A stretch of 64,000 nt of DNA from an uncultured Mycoplasmatota bacterium (GCA_900546715.1 UREA01000002.1:20050-84049), one strand, 5' to 3'. Shown: positions 48,683 to 63,712, counted from the first letter of the stretch. Numbers and translations are program-made. The notes: generated by a model from the sequence alone, not told the origin.

Positions 48683-49774
48683 TTAAAAGATAAATACCAT
48701 ATTTTGATAATTAAAATTCCACTCAGAATACTTAAGCAATGCTACTTCACCATCATATGGATTATATTTATATAAAGTATCATCTGAAATATAATAAACA
48801 TCCATTCCATTAACTTTAACTAAAACACTAACAAAACGATTAGATACTAAATTATTATCTTCAGCATTTAGAATACTTTGATAAAGCGAATTATTTAAAA
48901 GAACATAATTAACACTAGATTTTTCACTAAATGTTGGTTTTTCTGATTGTATAGTTTGATTACTTACATTTTGCCAATTGCCATCAACTAATATTTCCCT
49001 ATCAGTTTTATATATTTCTTCTTTTTTCATATCGATATAATATTCTTGATTTTCTCTTAAATCATATAAATATACTCTATTTTTATAATCTCCCATAAAA
49101 TAACTATTAAAATATACTTCAAATCTTAATTTAATGTTATTAATTTTGCCATTATTAGTATTTATTACATCAACATTATCATATATAAAATCTTGTTCAT
49201 AATCAGGAATAATTAAATAATTATCATATGCATATGTTAAAGATAAATTATAAATATCAGTATTAAACAAAGTTATTTTTTTATGATCACCTTTATTTAA
49301 ATAAATAAAATCATGATAATTCCAAAGCATATATGTTGCATCATCAATATCTCCAATACTTATATTTTCATAAGTATCTTTTATATTAAGTTCACTAGTT
49401 TGATTTATATTTTCTAAATAATAACCATCATCATTAGAACAAATATCATATAAATTAATATCAGTTGTTTTAAAACTTAAACATGTATCTTCATTATTTT
49501 CTGTTACTGTAATTTCTTCAATTAATCTTCTTTTATTACTATATTTATCTAAAGATACTAAATTATAAGTTTTATCTTTATAAAAAACACTAAAATAATA
49601 TGTTTCTAATTCTTTATCGTATTTTTCTAAAACTTTAAAATCATCAATAGTGTATTCAAGTTCATAACTTGTTTTTCTTAAATAAAAGTAAATAAACAAA
49701 GAAAACAATAAAATTATAATAACTACTAAAATAATATGTTTATACTGTTTTACTTGCTTCATTACTACTTCCAT
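48683..49774 (-). CDS. hypothetical membrane-anchored protein
   Basis: 363 aa with one N-terminal helix and a Tyr/Asn/Asp-rich ectodomain. Overlaps the end of the upstream PH-domain gene. Confidence 0.5.
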   Translation of the reverse strand: MEVVMKQVKQYKHIILVVIIILLFSLFIYFYLRKTSYELEYTIDDFKVLEKYDKELETYYFSVFYKDKTYNLVSLDKYSNKRRLIEEITVTENNEDTCLSFKTTDINLYDICSNDDGYYLENINQTSELNIKDTYENISIGDIDDATYMLWNYHDFIYLNKGDHKKITLFNTDIYNLSLTYAYDNYLIIPDYEQDFIYDNVDVINTNNGKINNIKLRFEVYFNSYFMGDYKNRVYLYDLRENQEYYIDMKKEEIYKTDREILVDGNWQNVSNQTIQSEKPTFSEKSSVNYVLLNNSLYQSILNAEDNNLVSNRFVSVLVKVNGMDVYYISDDTLYKYNPYDGEVALLKYSEWNFNYQNMVFIF

Positions 49775-50192
49775 ATAACTTCTTTTCTTGCATCATAAAT
49801 TCACTAACATTTGTTTCTATTTCATCCAATCCTGATTTAGGTAAATTAGAAATAACTACTTCTTCTTTAACCGTATCAATTGTTACTTTACCAAAGATTA
49901 ATCCTTGATAAACTTGTAAATCATTATACATATCTGGAGTAATTGAACTTAAGAAATAACCCCAAACAACTCTTTTTTGACCAATTAATAACCTTTTATT
50001 AGTAAGTACTACAACACAACTAGTAAATATCTCATAAAATGTATTATTTTTTTGTCCCATAAAAACAAATATTGGTTCTTCCCCAGGATTCAAATGTTTT
50101 TCTACTACATCACAATGCTTTTTAAGTCTCCACGCTATTCCTCCGGGATGCTTACTCTTAAATTCTAAAGCTTTTTCATATACAGTACTCAT
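49740..50192 (-). CDS. bacterial PH-domain (YokE-like) protein
   Basis: About 150 aa from the ATG after AGGTGGT. Pattern EPIFVFMG...VVVLTNKRLLIGQK...GKVTIDT. Confidence 0.5.
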   Translation of the reverse strand: MSTVYEKALEFKSKHPGGIAWRLKKHCDVVEKHLNPGEEPIFVFMGQKNNTFYEIFTSCVVVLTNKRLLIGQKRVVWGYFLSSITPDMYNDLQVYQGLIFGKVTIDTVKEEVVISNLPKSGLDEIETNVSEFMMQEKKLYGSSNEASKTV

Positions 50193-50237
50193 ATTACCAC
50201 CTAAATATATTGTATAATAAAATTTGATTATTCGCAA

Positions 50238-51185
50238 CTAAATTAGATAATCAGTATAAACCCAACGATTAGAATTTATTTTGGTCCAACCATTTTTCTC
50301 TTCCATTATAGCTACTGTTGTTCCTTTAGGAAGTGGTGCTTTAACTTTTAAAATAGTTCCTGCTGGTTTACTTCTAACATTTAAAAAATTTGCTGTTGTT
50401 TTTTTGGTTTCATAATATTTACTAGGAACTATTTTGGTAACAAAATTACCGGCGACATATTCTTTATCACTTATTTTTGCCCAATTATTAACAAATTCCA
50501 AAACTTTAACCTTAGTATTTTGAGGCAAAGTATTTATAGCATTATAATTTGTACTAGGCCCCAATCTTATGTTTAGTGATTCGGCAGTTGTATAATAATA
50601 TTCATCTTCTATATCAGGTATATACAAATCTAAAAAGTTTAATCCTGCACTATTTTTAATTGTTGTAAATGTATTATCAATAAAAAAAGCATCTTCTGGT
50701 TTAACCGATCCACCAGTTGTATTAATTACCCAAATATTATTGGTATTTTTAACCCAACCAGAACCCGCAAATTTACCTTTTCCTACAACAATATGAAAAT
50801 GTTCTCCAGTGGCATTTCCATCACGACCTTCAATAGCAATAGATTCTTTTCTTCTAAATTTTTGCCCAATACTTAGTTTATTTAATTCACTATCTTCAAT
50901 ATGACCAATCATAATTGTTACATAATCATTAAATGTTGGAGCAATGACTTTAGTAGTAGATTCTAACCACAAAACATTTGTTGAACTAGTACCAACACCA
51001 TATATTTTTTTAACTATCATTTCATCACAAGGACAATAAAAGTAACCATTAGCACCAGGCTCACCACAATTATCATCAATTGGATAATCCTTTGGAGTTC
51101 CAACAGTATGACGCGAGTGCGAAAAGTCATTTTCATATGTTTGCGTAATATTCATTACTTTAATTGGATAAATTAAATAATTCAT
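50238..51185 (-). CDS. endolysin-like peptidoglycan hydrolase: N-terminal metallopeptidase-like domain (M23-like, tentative) plus two SH3b domains
   Basis: 315 aa. GEHFHIVVG His cluster. Two C-terminal repeats with the SH3b pattern (LNIRLGPST...VKVLEFVNNWAKI and LNVRSKPAG...VAIMEEKNGWTKI). Directly follows a holin-like gene. Confidence 0.6.
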   Translation of the reverse strand: MNYLIYPIKVMNITQTYENDFSHSRHTVGTPKDYPIDDNCGEPGANGYFYCPCDEMIVKKIYGVGTSSTNVLWLESTTKVIAPTFNDYVTIMIGHIEDSELNKLSIGQKFRRKESIAIEGRDGNATGEHFHIVVGKGKFAGSGWVKNTNNIWVINTTGGSVKPEDAFFIDNTFTTIKNSAGLNFLDLYIPDIEDEYYYTTAESLNIRLGPSTNYNAINTLPQNTKVKVLEFVNNWAKISDKEYVAGNFVTKIVPSKYYETKKTTANFLNVRSKPAGTILKVKAPLPKGTTVAIMEEKNGWTKINSNRWVYTDYLI

Positions 51186-51460
51186 TAGCCCGACACCTCC
51201 TCAGGTGAAGTTTTTTCTTCTACTAATTCTTTTAAATTCTTTACTAAATCATAAGCACCACCAGTCATTATTCCTGCACTAACTATAGCAATAGATATAT
51301 CCTTTGTAATAAAAAAATATATCAAAGCCATAATCACACCAATAACTAAATTTTGTAAAGGAATTAAATTATTAGAAATCCAAGTTACTTTTTTAGCAAC
51401 AAGTCCCAAAATAAAAGTTACTACAATTACAACTACACTTAAAATAATTTCTAAATTCAT
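51185..51460 (-). CDS. phage-type holin-like protein
   Basis: About 91 aa from MNLEII after GGAGGTGA. Three hydrophobic helices and a charged C-terminus. Its stop overlaps the endolysin start. Confidence 0.55.
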   Translation of the reverse strand: MNLEIILSVVVIVVTFILGLVAKKVTWISNNLIPLQNLVIGVIMALIYFFITKDISIAIVSAGIMTGGAYDLVKNLKELVEEKTSPEEVSG

Positions 51461-51525
51461 TATTTTCACCTCCATTATATCTTATGTCGCCATAAAAAAA
51501 AGGAAGCGATGAATGTCTTGCTTCC

Positions 51526-53496: not shown

Positions 53497-55255
53497 TTCT
53501 AAGTTCCTCCTCACTTAATTGTGATAATGCAATTTCTTTGTAGACATCACAACTTTTTAGTAATTCTTCATGTGTTCCCATACCAACACATGTTCCTTTA
53601 TCTAAAACAATTATTTTATCGGCATTCATAATTGTTCCAATTCTTTGAGCAACTATAAATGTTGTAGCATCTTTAGTATATTTCTTTAATTCGCGTCTTA
53701 AAGTAAAATCAGTTTTATAGTCAAGTGCTGAAAATGAATCATCAAATATATATATTTCTGGCTTACGAGCAATAGCTCTAGCAATAGAAATTCTTTGTTT
53801 TTGTCCTCCAGAAATATTAGTTCCTCTTTGCGCTAAATAAGCATCATACTTATCAGGCATACTCTCCACAAATTCTTTTCCTTGGGCTACTTCAATAGCT
53901 TTTACTACATCTTCTTTAGTAATTTTCTTATCACTTTCTCCATAAGAAACATTTTCACTAACAGATCCACTAAATATTACAGCTTTCTGAGGTATATAAC
54001 CAATTTTATTATGTAAATATTCTAATTTGTAATCTTTAACATTAACGCCATCAATTATTATTTCGCCATCAGTTACATCATAAAATCTTGGAATTAAATT
54101 AATAAGAGTTGATTTACCACTACCAGTTGAACCAATAAAAGCTATCGTTTCGCCTTTTTCAGCTTTAAAAGTAATATCTTTTAAGATATATTCATCAGCA
54201 TCGGGATACTTAAATGATACATCCTTAAATTCAACAGTACCAGTAAGTTTAGGATCACTCTTTGTAACACTACCATCTTTGATTGCAAAATCTTCATCTA
54301 ATACTTCATTAATACGATCGGCAGATATTGCAGCTCTTGGATACATGATAAATATCATAGCAAGCATCAAGAATGACATAATAACTTGCATTCCATAAGA
54401 TGAGAATACTACCATATCACCAAAGATACCAACTTTTTCACTCATTAGGGATGCATCAATCATATAAGCACCAATGAAATATATAGCTAATGTTGAAAAA
54501 TACATTATCAAATACATGATGGGTTGCATAATACCAAATGTTCTTTGGTTAAATAATTGAATTTTAGTTAATTTACTATTTGTTTCTTCAAATTTCTTTT
54601 CTTGATAATCATCAGCATTAAATGCTCTAACTACTCGAATACCAGTTAAGTTTTCTCTAGTTATACCATTGATTTTATCAAGTAATTTTTGCACAATTTT
54701 AAATTTAGGTAAAACAACTATCATTAAGAATGTAAGGGTTAGTAAAAGTATTAATACTCCACCACCAATTACGGCACTCCATGTAAAGCTTTTACCAAGT
54801 ATTTTACTAACAGCCCATATTGCTGTAATTGGAGCTTTAATTATAAGTTGAAGACCCATAGCAACAAGCATTTCAATTTGCGATACATCGTTAGTAGTTC
54901 TCGTAATTAAACTACTTGTTGAAAATTTCTTAACTTCACCTTCACTAAAGTTTTCTACTTTTTCAAAAATATCTTTTCTAATTATCTTAGAAAATGTTGC
55001 AGCAATATATGATGCAAAAAATCCAACAATAACTGCTGATGCTAAACTACCAAAGGCACATAAAAGCATCTTACCTCCAGCAGTTAGGATTTCTGACATA
55101 GTATTTCCTTCAGTTTGAACAAGTTGTGTAATCTCTGACATATAGTCTGGTAATTTTAAATCAAGCCAAACTTGAAAAACTATTAATCCTGCACAAACTA
55201 ATATTAATAAAAAATCTTTTTTTCTTAATTTCTTTAATAATTTAAACATACTCAT
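53489..55255 (-). CDS. ABC exporter, fused permease/ATP-binding subunit (heterodimer partner)
   Basis: Walker A GSTGSGKST, signature ISGGQKQR and Walker B IYIFDDSFS. Confidence 0.85.
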   Translation of the reverse strand: MSMFKLLKKLRKKDFLLILVCAGLIVFQVWLDLKLPDYMSEITQLVQTEGNTMSEILTAGGKMLLCAFGSLASAVIVGFFASYIAATFSKIIRKDIFEKVENFSEGEVKKFSTSSLITRTTNDVSQIEMLVAMGLQLIIKAPITAIWAVSKILGKSFTWSAVIGGGVLILLLTLTFLMIVVLPKFKIVQKLLDKINGITRENLTGIRVVRAFNADDYQEKKFEETNSKLTKIQLFNQRTFGIMQPIMYLIMYFSTLAIYFIGAYMIDASLMSEKVGIFGDMVVFSSYGMQVIMSFLMLAMIFIMYPRAAISADRINEVLDEDFAIKDGSVTKSDPKLTGTVEFKDVSFKYPDADEYILKDITFKAEKGETIAFIGSTGSGKSTLINLIPRFYDVTDGEIIIDGVNVKDYKLEYLHNKIGYIPQKAVIFSGSVSENVSYGESDKKITKEDVVKAIEVAQGKEFVESMPDKYDAYLAQRGTNISGGQKQRISIARAIARKPEIYIFDDSFSALDYKTDFTLRRELKKYTKDATTFIVAQRIGTIMNADKIIVLDKGTCVGMGTHEELLKSCDVYKEIALSQLSEEELRNA

Positions 55256-55683
55256 TTCCTTTCTTCTATATTATTCTTAATTTTTTTAATAACAGATGTT
55301 ACCACATCTCTTTCTTCATCAGTTATCCCTTTAGATAACTTATCAGTAACATATTTATGCTTTTCACGCAATTTAGCAATAATATCATTGGCATCAGCAT
55401 TTATTATTATATGCTGACACCTATGATCAGATTCATCAAGTGCTAAAGAAATAAACCCGCGATCAAGCAATTTAGCTACAGCTTTAGAAACATAAGACTT
55501 AGAAAAACCTTTTAATTTAGCTACATCTCTTCCTTGATTAATATCCTTATTTAAGGTTATTGCAATTAAGACATCCGCCTCAGGTTTTGTAATACCAATT
55601 TCTTTAGCACATGCATCAATTTCGCTATCAATATAATCTCTAATTTTTTTAAAACATACTAATGTTTCTTCATCTTTAAACAT
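55252..55683 (-). CDS. MarR-family transcriptional regulator
   Basis: 143 aa with a winged-helix pattern. First gene of the ABC exporter operon, with an ATGA overlap. Confidence 0.7.
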   Translation of the reverse strand: MFKDEETLVCFKKIRDYIDSEIDACAKEIGITKPEADVLIAITLNKDINQGRDVAKLKGFSKSYVSKAVAKLLDRGFISLALDESDHRCQHIIINADANDIIAKLREKHKYVTDKLSKGITDEERDVVTSVIKKIKNNIEERK

Positions 55684-55799
55684 AATTTCACTTCCTAAAA
55701 ATTAGTTTATGCATCAACCATTATATAGATTTTTATTTTTTTAGTCAATAAAAAAATATGAATTTCACAAAACATTCATATTTTTACTTATTTTGTGTG

Positions 55800-55907
55800 G
55801 ATAACTCCCTACTTATCCACAACATAATAATATTTACTATATATTCTTGCTCATTTTCAGTTAATTCTTTATTTTGTTTTATATGATGCCACCTATAAAG
55901 GAAACCT
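55800..55907 (-). pseudogene. orphan 3'-terminal fragment of a DUF4186-like gene (left copy of 108-bp direct repeat)
   Basis: 101/108 identical, without gaps, to 58562-58669. Minus-strand translation ..FLYRWHHIKQNKELTENEQEYIVNIIMLWISRELSTQNK-stop matches the C-terminus of the intact gene. Confidence 0.75.
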
Positions 55908-56074
55908 TTGCCGATAATTGAAGGAATAACTAGAAAACTTAAGGTTAATATAAATTATAAAACACAAATCCGTTAAAAATTGAAAAATAAACCATAATCA
56001 AAATAAATTGATAAAGAAATATAAAATATTCAATTTGTTTATGTTATAATTAAGTAAATCGTGAGGTGGTATAT

Positions 56075-57436
56075 TTGAAAAAATATGATATTTGTATTAT
56101 CGGTTCTGGCCCCTGCGGATTAACATCTGCCTTAGAATTAAGCAAAAAATTTAAAATATGTATAATAGATGCAGGAAGAAACTTTGAAGGTAGAAAATGT
56201 CCTCTTGATGAAACTGGAAAATGCATTCAAAACTGTAACCCATGCAATATAATAACTGGTTATGGCGGTTGTCAATTTATCGATGGTACTAAAGCTTGTT
56301 TTTTCCCCGCCGGATCAGGATTATTCAATTTTGGCAGTAAAGATGAAATAATTAATTATTATAATTATGTTGAAAACTTATTAAATTTTTTTGGTAAACC
56401 CATTAGGCAAAAGGTAAATAAAGATAAAATTCAAAAAATAATAAAAAAGTTTAATAATCAAAATATTGATGTTAAGTATTATAATGCTCAAAAAGTTGAT
56501 AGAGAAATAATGAAACATATAGGTGAAAATATAAGAAAACGATTATTAGAAAATCATGTTGATTTTTATTATAATGAATTAGTAAAAGATATTCAAAAAA
56601 ACAATATTTTCATTATTACTACAAATAATATGCAATTTCAAGCAAACAAAGTAATAATAGCTACTGGCAGATATGGTAAATTCTTTTTGAATAACTTAAC
56701 TAAAAAATTAAATATCGACTATGATATGAATAATTTTGAAGGTGAGTTAGGAATAAGAATCGAAATGCCATATAGTTACTTTAACAAAATAAATGATATA
56801 TTTAATGATATTAAACTCAAGAGAAGAATAGATGATAATAATGAAATAAGAACATTTTGTCAAAATTATAAGGGCACCATAAGAAAATGTGTTTTTGACA
56901 CTGATATTGGTAAAATAACATCATTAGATGGCTGTATTCTAGGATTAGATAATAATACTAATAGCATCAACATAGCTATTCACCATAGAAAAAGCAAAAT
57001 AAAAGAAGCCGAAAAATTTAGGAATATTATTATAAAAACAAATATAGATAACAAGCCTATCGCACAAAATATGAAATCATTTTTAAATAATAATAAGGAT
57101 TGCGAGATTAACGAGACATATTGCACTATGCCTGATTATTCAATAGGAAATATAAATGACTATTTACCGATTGATACTCTAAATTATATAAAAAAAATGA
57201 TAATCGATATAGATAAGGTTATCCCTGGATTTGCATCAGAAGATAATATAGTATATGCTCCATCGTTTGAGTTGGGGGAAAATAAATATAAATTATCAAA
57301 ATCGTTTGAAACAAATGTTGAAGGCTTATATATAGGTGGTGATGCAAGTGGTTATTTTAGGGGGCTTATGCAAGCGATGATTTCTGGAAAAATAATTAGT
57401 AAAGATATTTTACAAAAGAGTGGAGGTATAAATTAA
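56075..57436 (+). CDS. FAD-dependent protein of the COG2509-like type, with N-terminal Cys cluster
   Basis: Start at the TTG after GAGGTGG. Dinucleotide fold ICIIGSGPCGL. Cys cluster CPLDETGKCIQNCNPC, followed by GYGGCQFIDG. C-terminal GLYIGGDASGYFRGLMQAMISG. Own extended -10 promoter (TGTTATAAT). Confidence 0.65.
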   Translation: MKKYDICIIGSGPCGLTSALELSKKFKICIIDAGRNFEGRKCPLDETGKCIQNCNPCNIITGYGGCQFIDGTKACFFPAGSGLFNFGSKDEIINYYNYVENLLNFFGKPIRQKVNKDKIQKIIKKFNNQNIDVKYYNAQKVDREIMKHIGENIRKRLLENHVDFYYNELVKDIQKNNIFIITTNNMQFQANKVIIATGRYGKFFLNNLTKKLNIDYDMNNFEGELGIRIEMPYSYFNKINDIFNDIKLKRRIDDNNEIRTFCQNYKGTIRKCVFDTDIGKITSLDGCILGLDNNTNSINIAIHHRKSKIKEAEKFRNIIIKTNIDNKPIAQNMKSFLNNNKDCEINETYCTMPDYSIGNINDYLPIDTLNYIKKMIIDIDKVIPGFASEDNIVYAPSFELGENKYKLSKSFETNVEGLYIGGDASGYFRGLMQAMISGKIISKDILQKSGGIN

Positions 57437-58279
57437 ATGATAGAAAATTCAGAAGTTAAAATTAGAGATATTGCATATTCTAAAGATACAATATCAAGGA
57501 AATATGTACAAACAACAGCTGATGATTATAGAATAGAGACTTTATATGTTGATTATAAAAACAAGTATATTATTTGTTTTTCAACACAAGTTGGTTGCAA
57601 TTTAAGATGCAAATTTTGCTATAATGGAATAAGACACAATTTTAAGAGAAATTTAACAAGTAAAGAAATATGTAATCAAATTGAAAATGTGATGAACGAA
57701 GAAAAACCAAATAAAGATAAGCCAATTTTATTTAGTGCAATGGGAATTGGAGAGCCTTTATTAAATTATGATAATTTAATAAAAGCATTCCATATTTTAA
57801 ATAAAAAATATCCTAATAATAAATTTGCTTTAGCAACTACTGGTGTAAATTTAAAAAACATTTTAAATTTAGCAAAAGATTTAAAAGATATAAATAAATT
57901 TAAACTGACAATTTCTTTGCATTCTGCCGACGAAGAAAAAAGAAAATATTTAATGCCAATTAGTAATGATTTAATTTCGCTAGTTAAAACGGTAAAAAAA
58001 TATAAGGCGATATCTGGCCGCGAAGTGGAATGGAATTATGTGTTATTTAATAATATTAACGATTCAATTGAAGATGCAAAAAAGTTATTTGAAATACTGG
58101 GAAAAGATGAATATATTAAAATAAATAAATTTAATAATGTTAAAATTAGTGTATTATCAGAAAGTAAAAATAAAGATATATTTATTTCAACTCTGGAAAA
58201 TTTAGGAATGCAAGTTGAATATTATGAAACTAATGGTGTTGATATAGATGGTGCTTGCGGTCAAATGATTTCCGATTAA
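57437..58279 (+). CDS. compact RlmN/Cfr-family radical SAM methyl-synthase homolog
   Basis: 280 aa. ICFSTQVGCNLRCKFC (CxxxCxxC plus the upstream Cys), MGIGEPLLN, LATTG, LTISLHS and C-terminal GVDIDGACGQM. ATG abuts the FAD gene's TAA. Confidence 0.75.
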   Translation: MIENSEVKIRDIAYSKDTISRKYVQTTADDYRIETLYVDYKNKYIICFSTQVGCNLRCKFCYNGIRHNFKRNLTSKEICNQIENVMNEEKPNKDKPILFSAMGIGEPLLNYDNLIKAFHILNKKYPNNKFALATTGVNLKNILNLAKDLKDINKFKLTISLHSADEEKRKYLMPISNDLISLVKTVKKYKAISGREVEWNYVLFNNINDSIEDAKKLFEILGKDEYIKINKFNNVKISVLSESKNKDIFISTLENLGMQVEYYETNGVDIDGACGQMISD

Positions 58280-58548
58280 TTAATGCTTTTATTTAAACAA
58301 AAATTAGAAAGAAATATCATAACTACCGAAATTCTTCTTTATTAACTATTTTTTATATAAAAATAATCTTAATAACCAATCTAACGAAATGGTAAAAAGA
58401 TTATTTTTATTTTGCTAAAGCAAGTGATAATATAAATATAAAACTGTAAGTTTTTCTACAAAATTATATTAGCAGTATCGTTAATTTCAAAGCACTGATT
58501 TAATATTTTATCAAAATATTAGTTATTTCTTACATTGAAATTAATATT

Positions 58549-58905
58549 TTATGAATTTGTTGATAACTCTTTATTTATCCACATCATAATAATATTTACT
58601 ATATATTCTTGCTCATTTTCAGTTAATTCTTTATTTTGCTTTATATGATGCCACTTATAAAGGCAACCTCTACAACAAGTTGCTGTTGCATGCTGAGCAA
58701 TAAACACTGGATGATTTTTCATTGGTGTTTGTTTACCGTCATTTGGTATATATGCTGGAGCAAGTCTCGTTTTAATGAAATCTTCAGCATGCTTTCTTAT
58801 TACATCTATTCCTTTATCATTAATATACTTTATATCTTTATTACTTAAATGAAAACTACTTCTAAATTTTGATTTAGCAAGTTTTTCTAATATATTATTA
58901 TACAT
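58549..58905 (-). CDS. DUF4186-family protein
   Basis: 118 aa. The pattern KFRSSF.L...D..YI..KG...IR.HAEDFI..RLAP....NDGKQTPM..HPVFIAQHATATCCRGCL.KWH is recalled as DUF4186. Confidence 0.65.
   Translation of the reverse strand: MYNNILEKLAKSKFRSSFHLSNKDIKYINDKGIDVIRKHAEDFIKTRLAPAYIPNDGKQTPMKNHPVFIAQHATATCCRGCLYKWHHIKQNKELTENEQEYIVNIIMMWINKELSTNS
58562..58669. repeat. right copy of the 108-bp direct repeat (inside intact DUF4186 gene)
   Basis: See 55800-55907. The constant offset is 2762 bp. Confidence 0.8.
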
Positions 58906-60631
58906 AATCTTCCTTTAATAATTCTTCTAATTTTTCAATATCCTCTTTTAGTATGTTAAAGCCTTTATTAAAGATATTTATATTAGATATATTAATTCCT
59001 AAATCTTTTAATAGATCAAGTGAATATTTACTACTTCCAGACTTTAAAAATGTAATATAACTATCTAATTTAATAGTATTATCTAAAATTCCATTTACTA
59101 CAATACTTGCTAACATTAGTCCTGTTGCATATTTATAGGAATAAAAAGCATATCTATACAAATGGCCTAATCTCATCCATTCATATTTTGCTAAACTATC
59201 ATATGCAACTTGATTTCCATAATATCTTTTAATTAAGTTATAATATATATTTGATATATTATTACTAGTTAATCTATTATCATTCTTTAAAACATATAAT
59301 CTTAATTCTAATTCTGTATATAAAGTTTGTTTAAATACAGTAGTAAAATAATTTTCTATTTCTTTACTCAAATAAAATATTTTTTCTTCTTTAGTTTTAG
59401 CATTATTATATAAATATCTATTTAATAATATTTCATTAGTAATTGATGCTATTTCTCCAACAAAGATGGTACTATCCTCATATATAAATGGTTGATTTTG
59501 TTTAGATAAGTAATAATTAACTATATGACCTAATTCATGAATCAAGTTTTTTAAATCATTATATGTACCTTTATAATTTAAAAATGAATATGTGTTCCAA
59601 GAAAAGGTAATCGATTGATGTTTTTTATTATCAAAACTAGCATCAATATGTCCATCAAGTAATATATCAACTGCTTTTAAATATTCATCCCCGAGAGGTT
59701 TTAAGGATTCTTTTATAATTTTTATAGCATCTTCTAAACTATATTTTGGAATATTTTCGCTTAAATTAACTCCGAAATCATATAGGTGTGGTTTCTTTAT
59801 TTTTAACTTATTAGCTTTAATATTCAAATAATTTTGGATTAAAAATAAATGATTATTCACACTAAGTATTAAATTATCAACTATTTTTGAATCTATTTTT
59901 TCTTCAAATAGTACCTTTTCTAAAACAGAATTATATTTTTCTAATTTTATATTTTTTATTCTTAAATTATAAATATTATCTAGTATAGTAAAATATTCCT
60001 TTGCTTTTTCTTTATAAGCACTATCTACATTAATAAAAGTTTGTTTTCTAATATCTCTATTTTTAGAATTTAAATATTTGCCATAATTACTAATATTTAA
60101 ATCTATTTTTTCATTATCAATTACAATATTATTAAATTGCATATTATGTAGCAATTTATTATAATCCGTTAAATATTTATTAATTAAATTATTGTTATTT
60201 ATTAGTTCATCACTTTTTATAATATGTTCTTGCTTTCTAAATAAATTATCAATATATAATTTATATTTTTCTAATTTCTTATTTTCTTGATACATTTCGT
60301 TTATTTTATCATTACCGAAATTTAAAATAATATTATCCACAAATTGTAATTTATAATTAATTTCGTTATTAAAATTTTCAACTTTTTCTTTTATTTTAAT
60401 AGTATCTTCATTATTCACATCTTTATAATATTTAAATGAACCATAAATTAAAATATTATTTGTTACCTCTTTTATTTGCCATGCTTTTTCTAATAAATTA
60501 AATAAACTAAAAGAATTATTTACTTTAATTTTATTTAATTTATCAACTTGTTTTGTGATTTTTTCAATTTCATGACAACAATCTTTTTCACTTTTAAACA
60601 AATCATCTAAATTCCATATTAAATTTGCCAT
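58898..60631 (-). CDS. pepF: M3B oligoendopeptidase F-like metallopeptidase
   Basis: HELGH zinc motif (IHELGHIV). About 577 aa from MANLIWN after GGAGA. The longer track ORF would overlap the tmRNA and its terminator. Confidence 0.75.
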   Translation of the reverse strand: MANLIWNLDDLFKSEKDCCHEIEKITKQVDKLNKIKVNNSFSLFNLLEKAWQIKEVTNNILIYGSFKYYKDVNNEDTIKIKEKVENFNNEINYKLQFVDNIILNFGNDKINEMYQENKKLEKYKLYIDNLFRKQEHIIKSDELINNNNLINKYLTDYNKLLHNMQFNNIVIDNEKIDLNISNYGKYLNSKNRDIRKQTFINVDSAYKEKAKEYFTILDNIYNLRIKNIKLEKYNSVLEKVLFEEKIDSKIVDNLILSVNNHLFLIQNYLNIKANKLKIKKPHLYDFGVNLSENIPKYSLEDAIKIIKESLKPLGDEYLKAVDILLDGHIDASFDNKKHQSITFSWNTYSFLNYKGTYNDLKNLIHELGHIVNYYLSKQNQPFIYEDSTIFVGEIASITNEILLNRYLYNNAKTKEEKIFYLSKEIENYFTTVFKQTLYTELELRLYVLKNDNRLTSNNISNIYYNLIKRYYGNQVAYDSLAKYEWMRLGHLYRYAFYSYKYATGLMLASIVVNGILDNTIKLDSYITFLKSGSSKYSLDLLKDLGINISNINIFNKGFNILKEDIEKLEELLKEDYV

Positions 60632-60687
60632 AATATTCTCCATTTCATAAAATAAAAATCCCGTACTTACGGGAGTTATAAACCTTA

Positions 60688-61044
60688 TGGTGGAGTAGAG
60701 GAGAGTCGAACTCCTGTCCAATATGTTCTATTATACAATATCTACAAGTTTAGGTAGATTTTGTTTGTCCTAATTAAATGGCTCTACACCAACCTCATAA
60801 TTAGTAAGTTTAGTAAATTTCGATATACTATCCTAAACAAATAATATATTATATCTTATATTTATGAACCCCTAGCTAAACCTATAAGAGAAATTTAGTA
60901 GAAGTGCTCCCTTACCTACTAATTAGGCAAAAGCAGGAGCGAAACTGTAATTAGTTTCGTCATTTAATTTTAGGTTTGCACTTAAGGTATGCCGACCACT
61001 TGCAATCATATCTAGTTACATATGTCGAAACCATGAACTACCCC
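60688..61044 (-). ncRNA. ssrA: tmRNA (SsrA)
   Basis: 5' GGGGTAGTTCATGGTTTCGAC and 3' GGACAGGAGTTCGACTCTCCTCTACTCCACCA tRNA-like ends. Internal tag reading frame GAC GAA ACT AAT TAC AGT TTC GCT CCT GCT TTT GCC TAA. Promoter TAGACA-17-TATAAT (61055-61083). Terminator CCCGTA-AGT-TACGGG plus U-run. Confidence 0.9.
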
Positions 61045-61089
61045 ATACAACATAATTATAACAAAAAATTCTCAATTTGTCTACTGTTT

Positions 61090-62094
61090 TTAACAAATGT
61101 TCGCACTTGATTCAGCATTTAATGAATAATCCGCAAAGTCATGTTTTAAATATAGAGGATATGCAGCAGCACCAATCATGGCAGCATTATCTGTACAATA
61201 AATAAATTCAGGAATAGAAAGTTTAGCATTATTTTCTTCAGCTATTCTTTTTATTTCGCCCCTTAAATATTTGTTAGCAGATACTCCTCCTGCTACTATT
61301 ATATGCTTTATACCCGTATTTTTAAGGGCTAAATCAACTTTCCTTGCCAGTTCATCTACGGCAGTAACCTGAAAACTACATGCAAGATCTGCTTGTCTTA
61401 TTTCATTACCTCTCTGCGTCTCATTATGAACTAAATTAATTATATAACTTTTTAAACCACTATAACTAAAGTTATAAGTATGATCCATTACAGGTTTTGG
61501 CAAATCATATGTAGGTTTACCTTGCAAAGCTAATTTTTCAATTCCAGGTCCTCCTGGATAAGGAATATTTAGAATTCTAGCTACTTTATCATAAGCTTCT
61601 CCAATTGCATCATCTAGGGTTGAACCTAAAAGTTCAAAATCATAATCATCTTTCATAATTACAAGTTCGGTATGTCCACCACTTACAACTAGGGCAAGTA
61701 GTGGAAACTCTAATTTATTATTTATGGCATTAGCATAAATATGGCCAATTAAGTGATTCACTTTAATTAAAGGCTTATTATAAATGAATGATAATACTTT
61801 AGCAAATTCAATACCAACAAGTAAGGAACCAAGTAAACCTGGTTTATAAGTTACAGCAATAGCATCAACATCAGCTACACTCATATGAGCTTTGTTTAAA
61901 GTATCTTCTAAAACCATTGTAATATTTTCAGTATGCATTCTTGATGCAATTTCTGGTACTACACCCCCAAATTTAGCATGTGTATCCATTTGGGTTAAAA
62001 TAGTTATTGCTATAACCTCACTACCATTTTTAACAATAGCAATACTTGTTTCATCACAACTTGTTTCTATCGCTAATATATATACATCTTTCAT
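61090..62094 (-). CDS. tsaD: tRNA N6-adenosine threonylcarbamoyltransferase
   Basis: 334 aa. ILAIETSCDETS N-terminus and GHIY / GGVSAN motifs. Confidence 0.93.
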   Translation of the reverse strand: MKDVYILAIETSCDETSIAIVKNGSEVIAITILTQMDTHAKFGGVVPEIASRMHTENITMVLEDTLNKAHMSVADVDAIAVTYKPGLLGSLLVGIEFAKVLSFIYNKPLIKVNHLIGHIYANAINNKLEFPLLALVVSGGHTELVIMKDDYDFELLGSTLDDAIGEAYDKVARILNIPYPGGPGIEKLALQGKPTYDLPKPVMDHTYNFSYSGLKSYIINLVHNETQRGNEIRQADLACSFQVTAVDELARKVDLALKNTGIKHIIVAGGVSANKYLRGEIKRIAEENNAKLSIPEFIYCTDNAAMIGAAAYPLYLKHDFADYSLNAESSANIC

Positions 62095-62520
62095 TTAACC
62101 GCCCCATTTCATTAAATAAGCATCAGCATTATTATAATACTTTCTTCTCACATTTACTACTTTAAAATCTAATTTTTTATACATATTATACGCCGGAAAA
62201 TTATCAGTAGATACCTCTAAAGTAATTGTTTTATTTTCTGCTAGTTTTATTAAATATTTAATTAAATTTGTTCCAACATGTTTACATCTATCACTTTCAC
62301 TTACATAAATACTTAATAAATCTATGTTATCCCCAAAATCAAGAGCATATAAATAGCCATTAACCCCATATGCACTAACACTTACCAAAACTATTGCTAA
62401 AGCACTATCTATTTCTGTTTCAATATGAAATGTTTTAACAAAATTTTCGTGTAACTTACTACCTAAATTATTTATGGCTGAAATATCTTCTTTAGTTGCT
62501 CTTCTTATCAAGTTCCACAC
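62095..62520 (-). CDS. rimI: GNAT acetyltransferase, RimI-like
   Basis: 141 aa, in the conserved position between tsaB and tsaD. Confidence 0.7.
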   Translation of the reverse strand: MWNLIRRATKEDISAINNLGSKLHENFVKTFHIETEIDSALAIVLVSVSAYGVNGYLYALDFGDNIDLLSIYVSESDRCKHVGTNLIKYLIKLAENKTITLEVSTDNFPAYNMYKKLDFKVVNVRRKYYNNADAYLMKWGG

Positions 62521-63052
62521 CTATTTTTTTGATATATACTGGTTTTACTTGGTGAGCATTTTCAGGTTCTCTAGTCTTTAAAAACTCATATATTTTTTCA
62601 GCATCAACATTATAATCTAAAGAATATGTATTATCTTTATTAAGTTTAGCAAATTCTTCATCGGAAACATAACTATAATCACCAATTAGAGTTTTATTAT
62701 CATCAAATACTCCAACATAGTAACCATTGTTATCACTAAATGCTACATGATTTTTTTTATTACTTACTGCCATAACTTCTAAAGCTGTAATAGTCTTTAT
62801 CGGAATATTTAGAGTATAAGCTAAAGTTTTAGCAATCGTTACTCCCAGACGAACTCCCGTAAATGATCCTGGTCCATTAACAACTATTACTTCATCTAAA
62901 TTTATGTCATCAATCACTTTAACAATGCTTGGAAATATGTATTCACTATTATTTTTTTTGTTTTTAATCTCTTCTTTTTTAACAACTAATCCGTCATGCA
63001 ACAAAACAATTATTATATCCCATAAATGTGTATCAATAAATAATGTATTCAT
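62492..63052 (-). CDS. tsaB: tRNA threonylcarbamoyladenosine biosynthesis protein TsaB
   Basis: 186 aa. GPGSFTGVRLG motif. Confidence 0.85.
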   Translation of the reverse strand: MNTLFIDTHLWDIIIVLLHDGLVVKKEEIKNKKNNSEYIFPSIVKVIDDINLDEVIVVNGPGSFTGVRLGVTIAKTLAYTLNIPIKTITALEVMAVSNKKNHVAFSDNNGYYVGVFDDNKTLIGDYSYVSDEEFAKLNKDNTYSLDYNVDAEKIYEFLKTREPENAHQVKPVYIKKIGVELDKKSN

Positions 63053-63504
63053 TATAATACCGCACTACAAAGTTCTTCGTATTCTTCACCATATGGCGTA
63101 AATACTAACACTCTAGTATCTTCATCAATTACTTTAAATTTAATTTCTAATCTTTTCTTAGGAAGTTGTTTTTCAATGAGGTCCGCCCATTCGATAATTG
63201 TAACTCCCCCTTTATTAAAGTAATCTTTAAACCCAATTCCTTCAACACTATCTTCTAGTCGATATACATCCATGTGATAAAGAGGTAATTCTCCACTATC
63301 ATATTCTTTTATAATTGTAAATGTTGGACTAGTTATTGTATCTTTTATTCCTAGGGAAGCTGCAAATCCTTTAGTAAATACAGTCTTACCACTACCAAGT
63401 TCCCCAATAAGGCAAATTACCATATTAGGAAATTTTTCACTTTCAATATTTTGGGCAATTGTTAAAGTATCTTCAACTGACCTTGATGTAAATTTATAAT
63501 CCAT
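63052..63504 (-). CDS. tsaE: tRNA threonylcarbamoyladenosine biosynthesis ATPase TsaE
   Basis: 150 aa. GELGSGKT Walker A and HMDVYRL motif. Confidence 0.88.
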   Translation of the reverse strand: MDYKFTSRSVEDTLTIAQNIESEKFPNMVICLIGELGSGKTVFTKGFAASLGIKDTITSPTFTIIKEYDSGELPLYHMDVYRLEDSVEGIGFKDYFNKGGVTIIEWADLIEKQLPKKRLEIKFKVIDEDTRVLVFTPYGEEYEELCSAVL

Positions 63505-63603
63505 TTTTAATCACCTGTATTCATTATAAATTAAAAAAATTAGTTATACAAGACAAAGATAACTATTTTACATATATTTTAAAAGATTTCAAAGCAAAAA
63601 AAA

Positions 63604-63712
63604 ATAGGCAACTTCCTATCTTAGCATTACACTATTGTCGGCGTATTAGGTCTTAACTTCTCTGTTCGGGATGGGAAGAGGTGTATCACCTAAGCTATCG
63701 TCACCTATAAAG
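63604..63712 (-). rRNA. rrf: 5S ribosomal RNA
   Basis: Minus strand contains GGTGACGATAGC...CCCATCCCGAACAGAGAAGTTAAG. The terminal helix ATAGGTGAC/GTTGCCTAT fixes the ends to within a few nt. Confidence 0.85.

Follow-up and report, generated by a model that had tools for sequence, protein, structure and literature searches.

An Accessory Flavoprotein/Compact Radical-SAM Methylase Gene Pair Recombined into the 3' End of DUF4186 in an Uncultured Human-Gut Bacterium

A 64,000-nucleotide stretch of DNA deposited for an uncultured Mycoplasmatota bacterium (GCA_900546715.1 UREA01000002.1:20050-84049; hereafter the window, with positions counted from its first letter) carries, between two direct repeats, a pair of plus-strand genes for an FAD-dependent oxidoreductase and a compact radical S-adenosylmethionine (radical-SAM) methylase of the RlmN/Cfr type. 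Comparison with cassette-free relatives shows that this 2762-bp segment entered a native DUF4186 gene at its 3' end by recombination, and that it is an accessory, horizontally acquired operon. Our explanation as a whole—such an operon, encoding a flavoprotein and a methylase that would act together on a purine-type substrate—we hold at a probability of roughly 45%. The window DNA is identical to a human-gut metagenome scaffold (L001), and its species representative is a metagenome-assembled genome (MAG; L039) labeled "uncultured Bacilli bacterium." The relatives of the host are uncultured gut Clostridia (e.g., Candidatus Onthoplasma and Candidatus Merdicola); the host is an uncultured, low-GC, Clostridia-like bacterium of the human gut.

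The evidence for insertion comes from the repeats and from strains that lack the cassette. Positions 55796-55907 and 58558-58669 are ungapped direct repeats that are identical at 104 of 112 sites, which confirms and slightly lengthens the pair recognized in the original prediction, a model's reading of the bare sequence (55800-55907 and 58562-58669, 101/108). The right copy lies inside an intact DUF4186 gene (58549-58905, minus strand, 118 aa; PF13811, E = 2.6e-54, full model coverage). The left copy, also read on the minus strand, is an orphan 3' fragment of native allele type that encodes the last ~37 residues plus the stop codon and still reads ...GFLYRWHHIKQNKELTENEQEYIVNIIMLWISRELSTQNK*; both assignments, as well as the abrupt end of homology at 55907/55908, had been made correctly from the sequence. 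In two contigs found through a look-up of the neighboring MarR protein (L035 and L037), a DUF4186 gene of 119 codons abuts the MarR gene with no cassette, and the single repeat copy of each aligns to both copies in the window, as had been proposed for an empty site. L037 matches the window over 55155-55907 to the left at 99.3% identity and over 58540-63706 to the right at 99.6%, and the two alignments overlap on one 134-bp stretch of L037, giving a single repeat copy and an insert of 2762 bp. Cassette-free contigs of the same species, with one repeat copy and flanks that are 99.3-99.6% identical, thus mark a true insertion/deletion polymorphism. One MAG and at least 15 metagenome assemblies, all independent, contain the filled structure with identical junctions. 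The duplication is therefore not an assembly artifact, a doubt raised in the original prediction, and the identity of the junctions everywhere indicates that the insertion happened once.

How did the segment enter the DUF4186 gene? In a four-way alignment, the repeat copies are chimeric, as expected for a crossover inside the repeat. At its start, the left copy resembles the native allele (TTGTGTGGATAA...CACAACAT). The left part of this copy agrees with the empty alleles of L035 and L037, and its right part carries three single-nucleotide differences from L037. In the right copy, the ~35 nt nearest the stop, together with all DNA up to the radical-SAM gene, have no native counterpart, and the copy is native from a shared, identical core of ~50 nt rightwards. 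The 3' end of the intact gene is accordingly mixed, with the last ~12 codons and the stop of foreign type and the remainder native: the 119-aa protein of the empty sites ends ...MLWISRELSTQNK and the 118-aa protein of the window ends ...MMWINKELSTNS. This pattern fits one homologous crossover within the ~50-nt identical DUF4186 core and a second junction, at 55907/55908, that is nonhomologous; the outcome was a 112-bp direct duplication and an intact DUF4186 gene, with no recombinase or transposase taking part. Two routes could lead there: homology-facilitated illegitimate recombination of linear donor DNA carrying the cassette and DUF4186, or Campbell-type integration of a circle carrying a 3' fragment of DUF4186. 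The locus shares with such events a long (112-bp), imperfect target duplication, chimeric copies, the lack of a recombinase, and one abrupt, nonhomologous junction; it differs in that a donor genome was looked for and not found, and both routes fit. A transposon- or integron-type cassette was rejected: ORF (open reading frame) and repeat analyses of the insert found neither a recombinase nor a transposase, nor any terminal inverted repeat or short target duplication, the duplication being 112 bp of imperfect homologous gene sequence. Each repeat copy also holds an imperfect palindrome (55797-55822 and 58559-58584; GTGGATAA...TTATCCAC) over the last codons just inside the DUF4186 stop; it may be a terminator-like hairpin, and no run of T follows it.

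Within the insert there are just two ORFs, neither of them a recombinase or transposase gene. The first, the FAD gene (56075-57436, plus strand; assigned by Pfam, AlphaFold2 [AF2] modeling, Foldseek, and alignment), starts with TTG at 56075 and encodes 453 aa. Gene callers place the start there, and all homologues begin with MKKYD or MEKYD at this point; a GTG at 56066 was rejected as the start on these grounds. Read from the sequence, its ribosome-binding site (RBS) is GAGGTGG (56063-56069), and an extended -10 element lies further 5' (TGtTATAAT, 56042-56050, with TG at 56042-56043 and TATAAT at 56045-56050). The TAA stop (57434-57436) directly abuts the ATG start (57437-57439) of the radical-SAM gene (57437-58279, plus strand; hidden Markov models [HMMs], AF2, and Foldseek), whose product is 280 aa. 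The two-gene layout, the TAA-ATG joint, and the cassette's own extended -10 had all been read correctly in the original prediction. The promoter/RBS region (56022-56074, plus strand) travels with the gene pair, as DNA homology to a related pair at locus L016 begins at 56022. To its left lies insert-specific DNA (55908-56021), with no counterpart in the empty sites or in other loci carrying the pair; to the right of the radical-SAM gene, an insert-specific spacer (58280-58548), absent from the empty sites, is probably donor DNA from downstream of the donor's DUF4186. No match to a riboswitch or other RNA family was obtained from Rfam in the cassette or around it. A consensus scan for promoters and terminators, uninformative in AT-rich DNA of 25% GC, returned 40 promoter-like sites against 31 expected and no terminator-like site.

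What kind of enzyme does the second gene encode? RlmN, not Cfr, is its best HMM match. The RlmN equivalog model TIGR00048, matched from position 69 to position 342 of 355, scores 181.7 bits (cut-off 290) and PRK11194 scores 133.5 (cut-off 633), with lower scores from the Cfr models NF000424 (117.8; cut-off 530), PRK14453 (112.7; cut-off 468), and TIGR04432 (112.7; cut-off 550). The radical-SAM domain is matched by PF04055 (E = 8e-16) and the sequence of Escherichia coli RlmN in the Protein Data Bank (PDB) at E = 4e-29, with C47 and C274 equivalent to its C118 and C355. The catalytic apparatus comprises the cluster C54-x3-C58-x2-C61, C47 within ICFSTQVGC, C274 within GACGQM, and an MGIGEP motif, and none of the five cysteines varies among 16 family members of 51-100% identity. 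These motifs had been picked out in the original prediction, together with the cysteine motif of the flavoprotein described below, and both sets proved invariant across their families. The ratio of nonsynonymous to synonymous substitution rates (dN/dS) is 0.12-0.20 for the radical-SAM gene and 0.12-0.16 for the FAD gene, indicating purifying selection on both.

The N terminus sets the protein apart. Its AF2 model (mean predicted local distance difference test score [pLDDT], 90.8) opens at residue 8 on a set of three beta strands, the counterpart of the beta extension that in RlmN and Cfr links the core with the N-terminal domain; the RlmN-like fold of beta extension, partial TIM barrel, and C-terminal strand is otherwise present. 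Foldseek matched the model to RlmN structures 6fz6, 5hr7, and 3rfa (E = 1e-23 to 1e-21) with template-modeling scores of 0.82-0.88 relative to the query (TMq) and 0.67-0.72 relative to the target (TMt), and to Cfr with a TMq of 0.71. Only 46 residues precede the first catalytic cysteine, compared with ~105 in RlmN. The HMM match from position 69, the start on a beta strand, the low TMt, and the short N terminus together mean that the HhH2 domain is absent, and the early suspicion of an RlmN/Cfr-type enzyme without the N-terminal accessory domain was correct. HhH2 is the rRNA-binding element of Cfr and RlmN, and a 2026 cryo-EM study has it anchoring Cfr to helices H90-H92 of 23S rRNA (PMC13001441). 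The cassette methylase thus shares with RlmN the CxxxCxxC motif, the C118/C355 equivalents, the MGxGEP and GACGQ motifs, and the beta extension plus partial TIM barrel. It differs in lacking the ~60-residue HhH2 domain, in being only 29-35% identical and below the curated cut-off, and in being accessory, polymorphic at its locus, and, judging from the gene arrangement, co-transcribed with a flavoprotein. The 64-kb window holds no second RlmN-like gene, that is, no canonical rlmN.

Is this protein an isolated truncation? An exhaustive search of 50%-identity cluster representatives returned 7263 matches at E <= 0.001, in which compact forms of 260-300 aa fill nearly all of the top ~60 ranks and canonical forms of 340-360 aa appear only from ~141 bits down. 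Among roughly 150 best-scoring representatives, the number of residues before the first catalytic cysteine is bimodal, with 30-50 in ~100 and 100-115 in ~45, and in a neighbor-joining tree the compact forms group for the most part away from E. coli RlmN and Cfr(B). From these sequence comparisons, the protein is a member of a large, undescribed compact clade that appears to have shed its RNA-binding domain and is not a one-off truncation. NCBI names compact members only as "radical SAM protein," and no paper on RlmN forms lacking the N-terminal domain was found in the literature searched.

Most compact genes have no fixed company. The compact methylase stands alone, without a conserved neighbor, in 18 of the 22 lineages compared, and an all-versus-all comparison of ORFs within 6 kb across these lineages found a single recurrent neighbor, the FAD gene, in two of them; the compact family therefore looks like a stand-alone chromosomal one. 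A tblastn search of PLSDB plasmids gave 253 matches, all below 35% identity, and the annotated ones among those listed were canonical rlmN or cfr(B). Viral contigs contained no relatives of either cassette protein, and PADLOC defense models returned just a generic radical-SAM (pVip) similarity. Some compact genes sit in translation-related neighborhoods, namely those of L012/L051 (in L012, a SpoU-methylase/rimM/trmD/rplS cluster) and of L041 (in the vicinity of rplU/rpmA). Another is followed directly 3' by a NUDIX gene (L019), and one has a large serine recombinase gene just upstream (L021). Anecdotally, compact genes without the flavoprotein (L019:7893-8417; L021, L014, L016, L012, and L011) are often near genes for nucleotide handling, among them NUDIX, dCMP deaminase, HIT proteins, and the RNA 2'-phosphotransferase KptA. 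For comparison, the canonical Clostridia locus, as in Subdoligranulum, reads rsmB-rlmN-PP2C-PASTA kinase (L083). The same Subdoligranulum assembly also holds an RlmN-annotated gene with a shortened N terminus, as does Monoglobus (L082:2860-3843 and L081:460-1449; 327-329 aa, ~89 residues before the catalytic cysteine). These genes adjoin sigma-70, HTH, and Cys-rich KTR genes, and the Subdoligranulum record is typed as MOBV-mobilizable.

The flavoprotein belongs to an uncharacterized family. Only generic dinucleotide-binding modules exceed Pfam cut-offs (Pyr_redox_2, 49 bits; DAO, 34 bits; HI0933_like), and the GxGxxG FAD site is present as IIGSGPCG. VP0956 (PDB 3NLC), a COG2509 structural-genomics protein of uncharacterized function, is the best match both by sequence (E = 3e-7, C-terminal region) and, for the AF2 model (pLDDT 84.5), by Foldseek (E = 1e-21). 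The initial description of the protein as COG2509-like holds for the fold; for the C-terminal family domain, PF21688 (FAD-depend_C) reaches 20 bits against a cut-off of 27. The two proteins share a three-domain flavoprotein fold (TMq 0.68), the GxGxxG site, and the region of a C-terminal GD motif; the cassette protein differs in being 17% identical and ~90 residues shorter and in having an invariant four-cysteine (Cys4) motif of its own. That motif, C42-x7-C50-x3-C54-x2-C57, is invariant along with C262 in 18 homologues down to 39% identity and is absent from 3NLC in the alignment. The N and C termini give thioredoxin-reductase/YpdA-like matches. The literature searched held nothing relevant on COG2509 or DUF4186.

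Is the pairing of these two genes more than a local accident? Different species carry it in four mutually unrelated settings—the window, L016-18 (flanked by rpoC/YhcG and cotE), L084, and L085—and the genes abut or overlap in every one. Nucleotide homology of the window to L016, L084, and L085 is limited to ~56022/56064-58280, at 74.7-83.9% identity, and L084 and L085 share homology with the window across the gene pair alone. The gene pair thus moves as a unit between species. Further remnants are a fragment (L076) and a decaying copy (L058), the latter with its flavoprotein split into ORFs of 124 and 311 aa and only residues 6-47 of the radical-SAM protein detectable (L058:822-2334). The expectation that the FAD neighbor would be conserved with the methylase was right in part: the pairing is real and tight, and it is a minor arrangement of ~6 lineages that does not extend to compact methylases in general. 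The statement that no RlmN-like/COG2509 pairing had been described agrees with our literature search, which found no such paper.

Seen from the flavoprotein, the radical-SAM methylase is one of several partners. The gene immediately downstream of the flavoprotein gene encodes the compact radical-SAM protein at 6 informative loci, a ~215-aa class I SAM methyltransferase of small-molecule type at 4 (best matches UbiG, BioC, TehB, and ArsM), and the noncanonical purine NTP pyrophosphatase Ham1/RdgB at 11, where it is fused to the flavoprotein in two (L064 and L066); one locus has no such gene. The flavoproteins of L084 and L059 share 81% identity; the former has the radical-SAM enzyme as its partner and the latter the class I methyltransferase, so the partner has recently been swapped. 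We found nothing relevant on Ham1 together with radical-SAM and FAD proteins in the literature searched.

Two further settings of the flavoprotein family deserve mention. At L059:7989-12323 and L061:604-4929, the flavoprotein and class I methyltransferase genes adjoin those of a Mob_Pre (MobV) relaxase and TnpV, which suggests that this pair is cargo of a Tn4451-like mobilizable element inserted after murC. At L070:929-11307 and L072:2070-11224 (and partly L071:1361-7130), a Cys4 flavoprotein is encoded in a long co-directional operon, in the company of Ham1, a class I methyltransferase, and a second Ham1. The operon also contains two or three small radical-SAM genes, a gene for a 715-aa fusion of P-loop kinase-like, B12-binding, and radical-SAM domains, a nucleotide pyrophosphatase/phosphodiesterase gene (L070), and a gene for a 189-aa protein without assignment; its PADLOC hits are generic only. 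It looks like an undescribed nucleotide-modifying pathway.

What might the pair do? To our knowledge, class A radical-SAM methylases are represented only by RlmN (a housekeeping C2-methyltransferase of dual specificity, for A2503 of 23S rRNA and A37 of tRNA, that makes m2A) and Cfr (a C8-methyltransferase of A2503 that gives clinically serious multidrug [PhLOPSA] resistance), and C-methylation of adenine is the only chemistry known for the class. With a complete class A machinery (the [4Fe-4S]/SAM site, the methyl-carrying Cys274, and the resolving Cys47), the cassette enzyme should methylate an sp2 carbon of adenine or another purine ring, and transfer would proceed through a methyl-cysteine intermediate. 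The flavoprotein would carry out a redox step on the same substrate. Given a methylase without HhH2 and a flavoprotein family tied to Ham1 and small-molecule methyltransferases, the most likely substrate, as predicted from domain content and gene association, is a purine in nucleotide, nucleoside, or base form, or else a nucleic acid that is small or unstructured. The coupling of the FAD family to methyltransferases or Ham1 likewise lends some circumstantial support to FAD-assisted methylation, which the original prediction had offered as one option. A narrower version, in which a mobile two-enzyme module C-methylates and redox-modifies a free purine nucleotide, nucleoside, or base and not rRNA or tRNA, we consider unlikely.

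MnmC offers a loose parallel: it is an FAD oxidoreductase and a SAM methyltransferase acting consecutively on one nucleobase. The likeness, by analogy only, lies in the genetic coupling of a flavoenzyme and a methyltransferase directed at the same nucleic-acid base; the cassette proteins have no homology to the MnmC domains, their genes are separate, and their methyltransferase is a radical-SAM enzyme. A precedent for class A enzymes with other targets is the clostridial "Cfr-like" clade, which lacks rRNA-methylating activity (Atkinson 2013; Stojkovic 2016, PMC5062987). Like the cassette enzyme as we read it, its members are RlmN/Cfr paralogues in Clostridia whose substrate is not A2503; no flavoprotein partner is reported for them, and in this they differ.

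Several considerations weigh against a purine-type substrate for the pair. The functional statements are drawn from association, and the flavoprotein could just supply electrons or reduce a Cys47-Cys274 disulfide. The compact methylase usually occurs without the flavoprotein and is sometimes encoded beside translation genes (L012 and L041), neighbors that favor an RNA substrate for the compact family overall. Furthermore, the chemistries of class I methyltransferases and class A radical-SAM enzymes differ, so the swap of partners may not mean functional equivalence.

The alternative we take most seriously, at well under even odds, is that the 280-aa protein is a domain-reduced housekeeping RlmN of a sort typical of gut Clostridia with small genomes, making m2A2503 in rRNA and/or m2A37 in tRNA; the FAD gene would then either ride along without a functional tie or serve the methylase as its own electron donor or disulfide reductase. 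The enzyme does match RlmN better than Cfr and keeps all catalytic residues and the fold, and its clade is large, mostly chromosomal, and stand-alone, with translation-related neighborhoods at L012/L051 and L041. The RlmN cycle ends in a C118-C355 disulfide, and the thioredoxin-reductase/YpdA-like matches of the flavoprotein would suit the reduction of such a bond. A housekeeping role, however, sits poorly with a gene that is dispensable at its locus and absent from 99.5%-identical strains, with a score of 181.7 bits against the equivalog cut-off of 290, and with the loss of the domain that grips RNA (PMC13001441). Nor is the FAD family tied to RNA enzymes; its associations are with Ham1 and small-molecule methyltransferases.

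How recent is the insertion that brought the purine-modifying candidates into this genome? Between strains, the cassette is 99.2-100% identical and its flanks are 88-97% identical, with values of 93.6-97.8% for the adjacent MarR and ABC segments and 88-90% for the lysis-gene region. A cassette so much less diverged than its flanks is younger than the divergence of the strains and has spread by recombination. The data point to one recent insertion followed by spread among diverged conspecific strains by homologous recombination, and the original claim of recent acquisition stands on both counts, the empty conspecific sites and the low divergence of the cassette.

The opposite direction of change appears quite improbable: an ancestral filled structure, no recent gain, and empty alleles that arose later by precise deletion between the 112-bp repeats. 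It would explain why the empty copy equals the left part of the left copy joined to the right part of the right copy, as repeat-mediated deletion gives, and strains with and without the cassette each occur both with PepF and with a BLIP-domain gene at the adjacent position, making up the full set of four pairings. Against it, the cassette is 5-10x less diverged than the flanks across strains, nothing native corresponds to either spacer or to the part of the right copy nearest the stop, and an original insertion would still be needed to make the duplication. Gain and precise loss are separated by the diversity argument only, a point that counts against our account; and as precise deletion through the repeats yields exactly the empty allele, some empty sites may be secondary even if the insertion itself is recent.

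A recent sweep also recalls antibiotic resistance. Cfr and Cfr(B-E) share with the cassette enzyme its class, its catalytic cysteines, and horizontal mobility; the cassette enzyme differs in a much weaker sequence and structure match than to RlmN, in the missing N-terminal domain, and in not having been found on PLSDB plasmids or known resistance elements. That the cassette is a Cfr-like determinant (m8A2503 or other methylation of the peptidyl transferase center) recently selected in gut populations, as the original prediction had suggested, would fit the recent acquisition and apparent sweep, the RlmN/Cfr catalytic apparatus, the relatives of the FAD gene on a Tn4451-like mobilizable element, and the one compact gene beside a large serine recombinase, yet it is very unlikely in view of Cfr-model scores of 113-118 bits against cut-offs of 468-550, a TMq to Cfr (0.71) below that to RlmN, PLSDB plasmids with no relative above 35% identity and with canonical rlmN or cfr as the annotated matches listed, no relatives in viral contigs, loss of the domain that anchors Cfr to H90-H92, and a known clostridial Cfr-like clade without rRNA activity (PMC5062987).

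The genes around the insertion site are native. Strains with the empty site carry the MarR/ABC operon, DUF4186, and PepF with essentially no change. The proposed connection of the cassette with the MarR/ABC exporter was accordingly rejected: the operon merely flanks the site and is identical and adjacent to DUF4186 in strains without the cassette. The ABC pair that lies beside the cassette of L085 is only 25-33% identical. A functional link to DUF4186 was rejected as well, this gene being an insertion target only and not adjacent to the pair in L016, the other such locus searched. So was a "low-GC island including PepF," as PepF, with its low GC, is native and 99.7% identical in an empty strain. 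Some strains have, in place of this very AT-rich gene (58898-60650, GC 0.16-0.21), one for a BLIP-domain protein along with two small ORFs (L008:3181-4530 and L035:354-1700); the occurrence of all four combinations of these alternatives with cassette presence or absence implies that recombination, or else repeated gain and loss, has acted over a span of a few hundred bases. Farther away, next to the ABC operon, a lysis-like gene set at 49000-51500 (holin-like, SH3_3, bPH, and LysM) is 88-90% identical in strains whose cassettes are >99% identical; this is a hypervariable or phage-derived segment.

For genome evolution, the locus illustrates cleanly how genes are gained in nature through one-sided homologous recombination, and filled and empty alleles can both be compared. 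For the enzyme family, it exposes an unannotated compact clade that is large (~100 of the ~150 best-scoring 50%-identity representatives), one branch of which is tightly tied genetically to an uncharacterized flavoprotein family that is otherwise tied to Ham1 and methyltransferases, in a gene pair currently moving between and within human-gut species. If the substrate is neither A2503 nor A37, the known class A chemistry would be widened; if it is A2503, a known resistance mechanism would have in the cassette a new relative that is under no surveillance. A small-molecule module, if that reading is true, would give the class A radical-SAM methylases their first branch acting on small molecules, and its sweep through gut populations would reflect selection, for example for tolerance of a drug or antimetabolite or for the production of a modified nucleotide.

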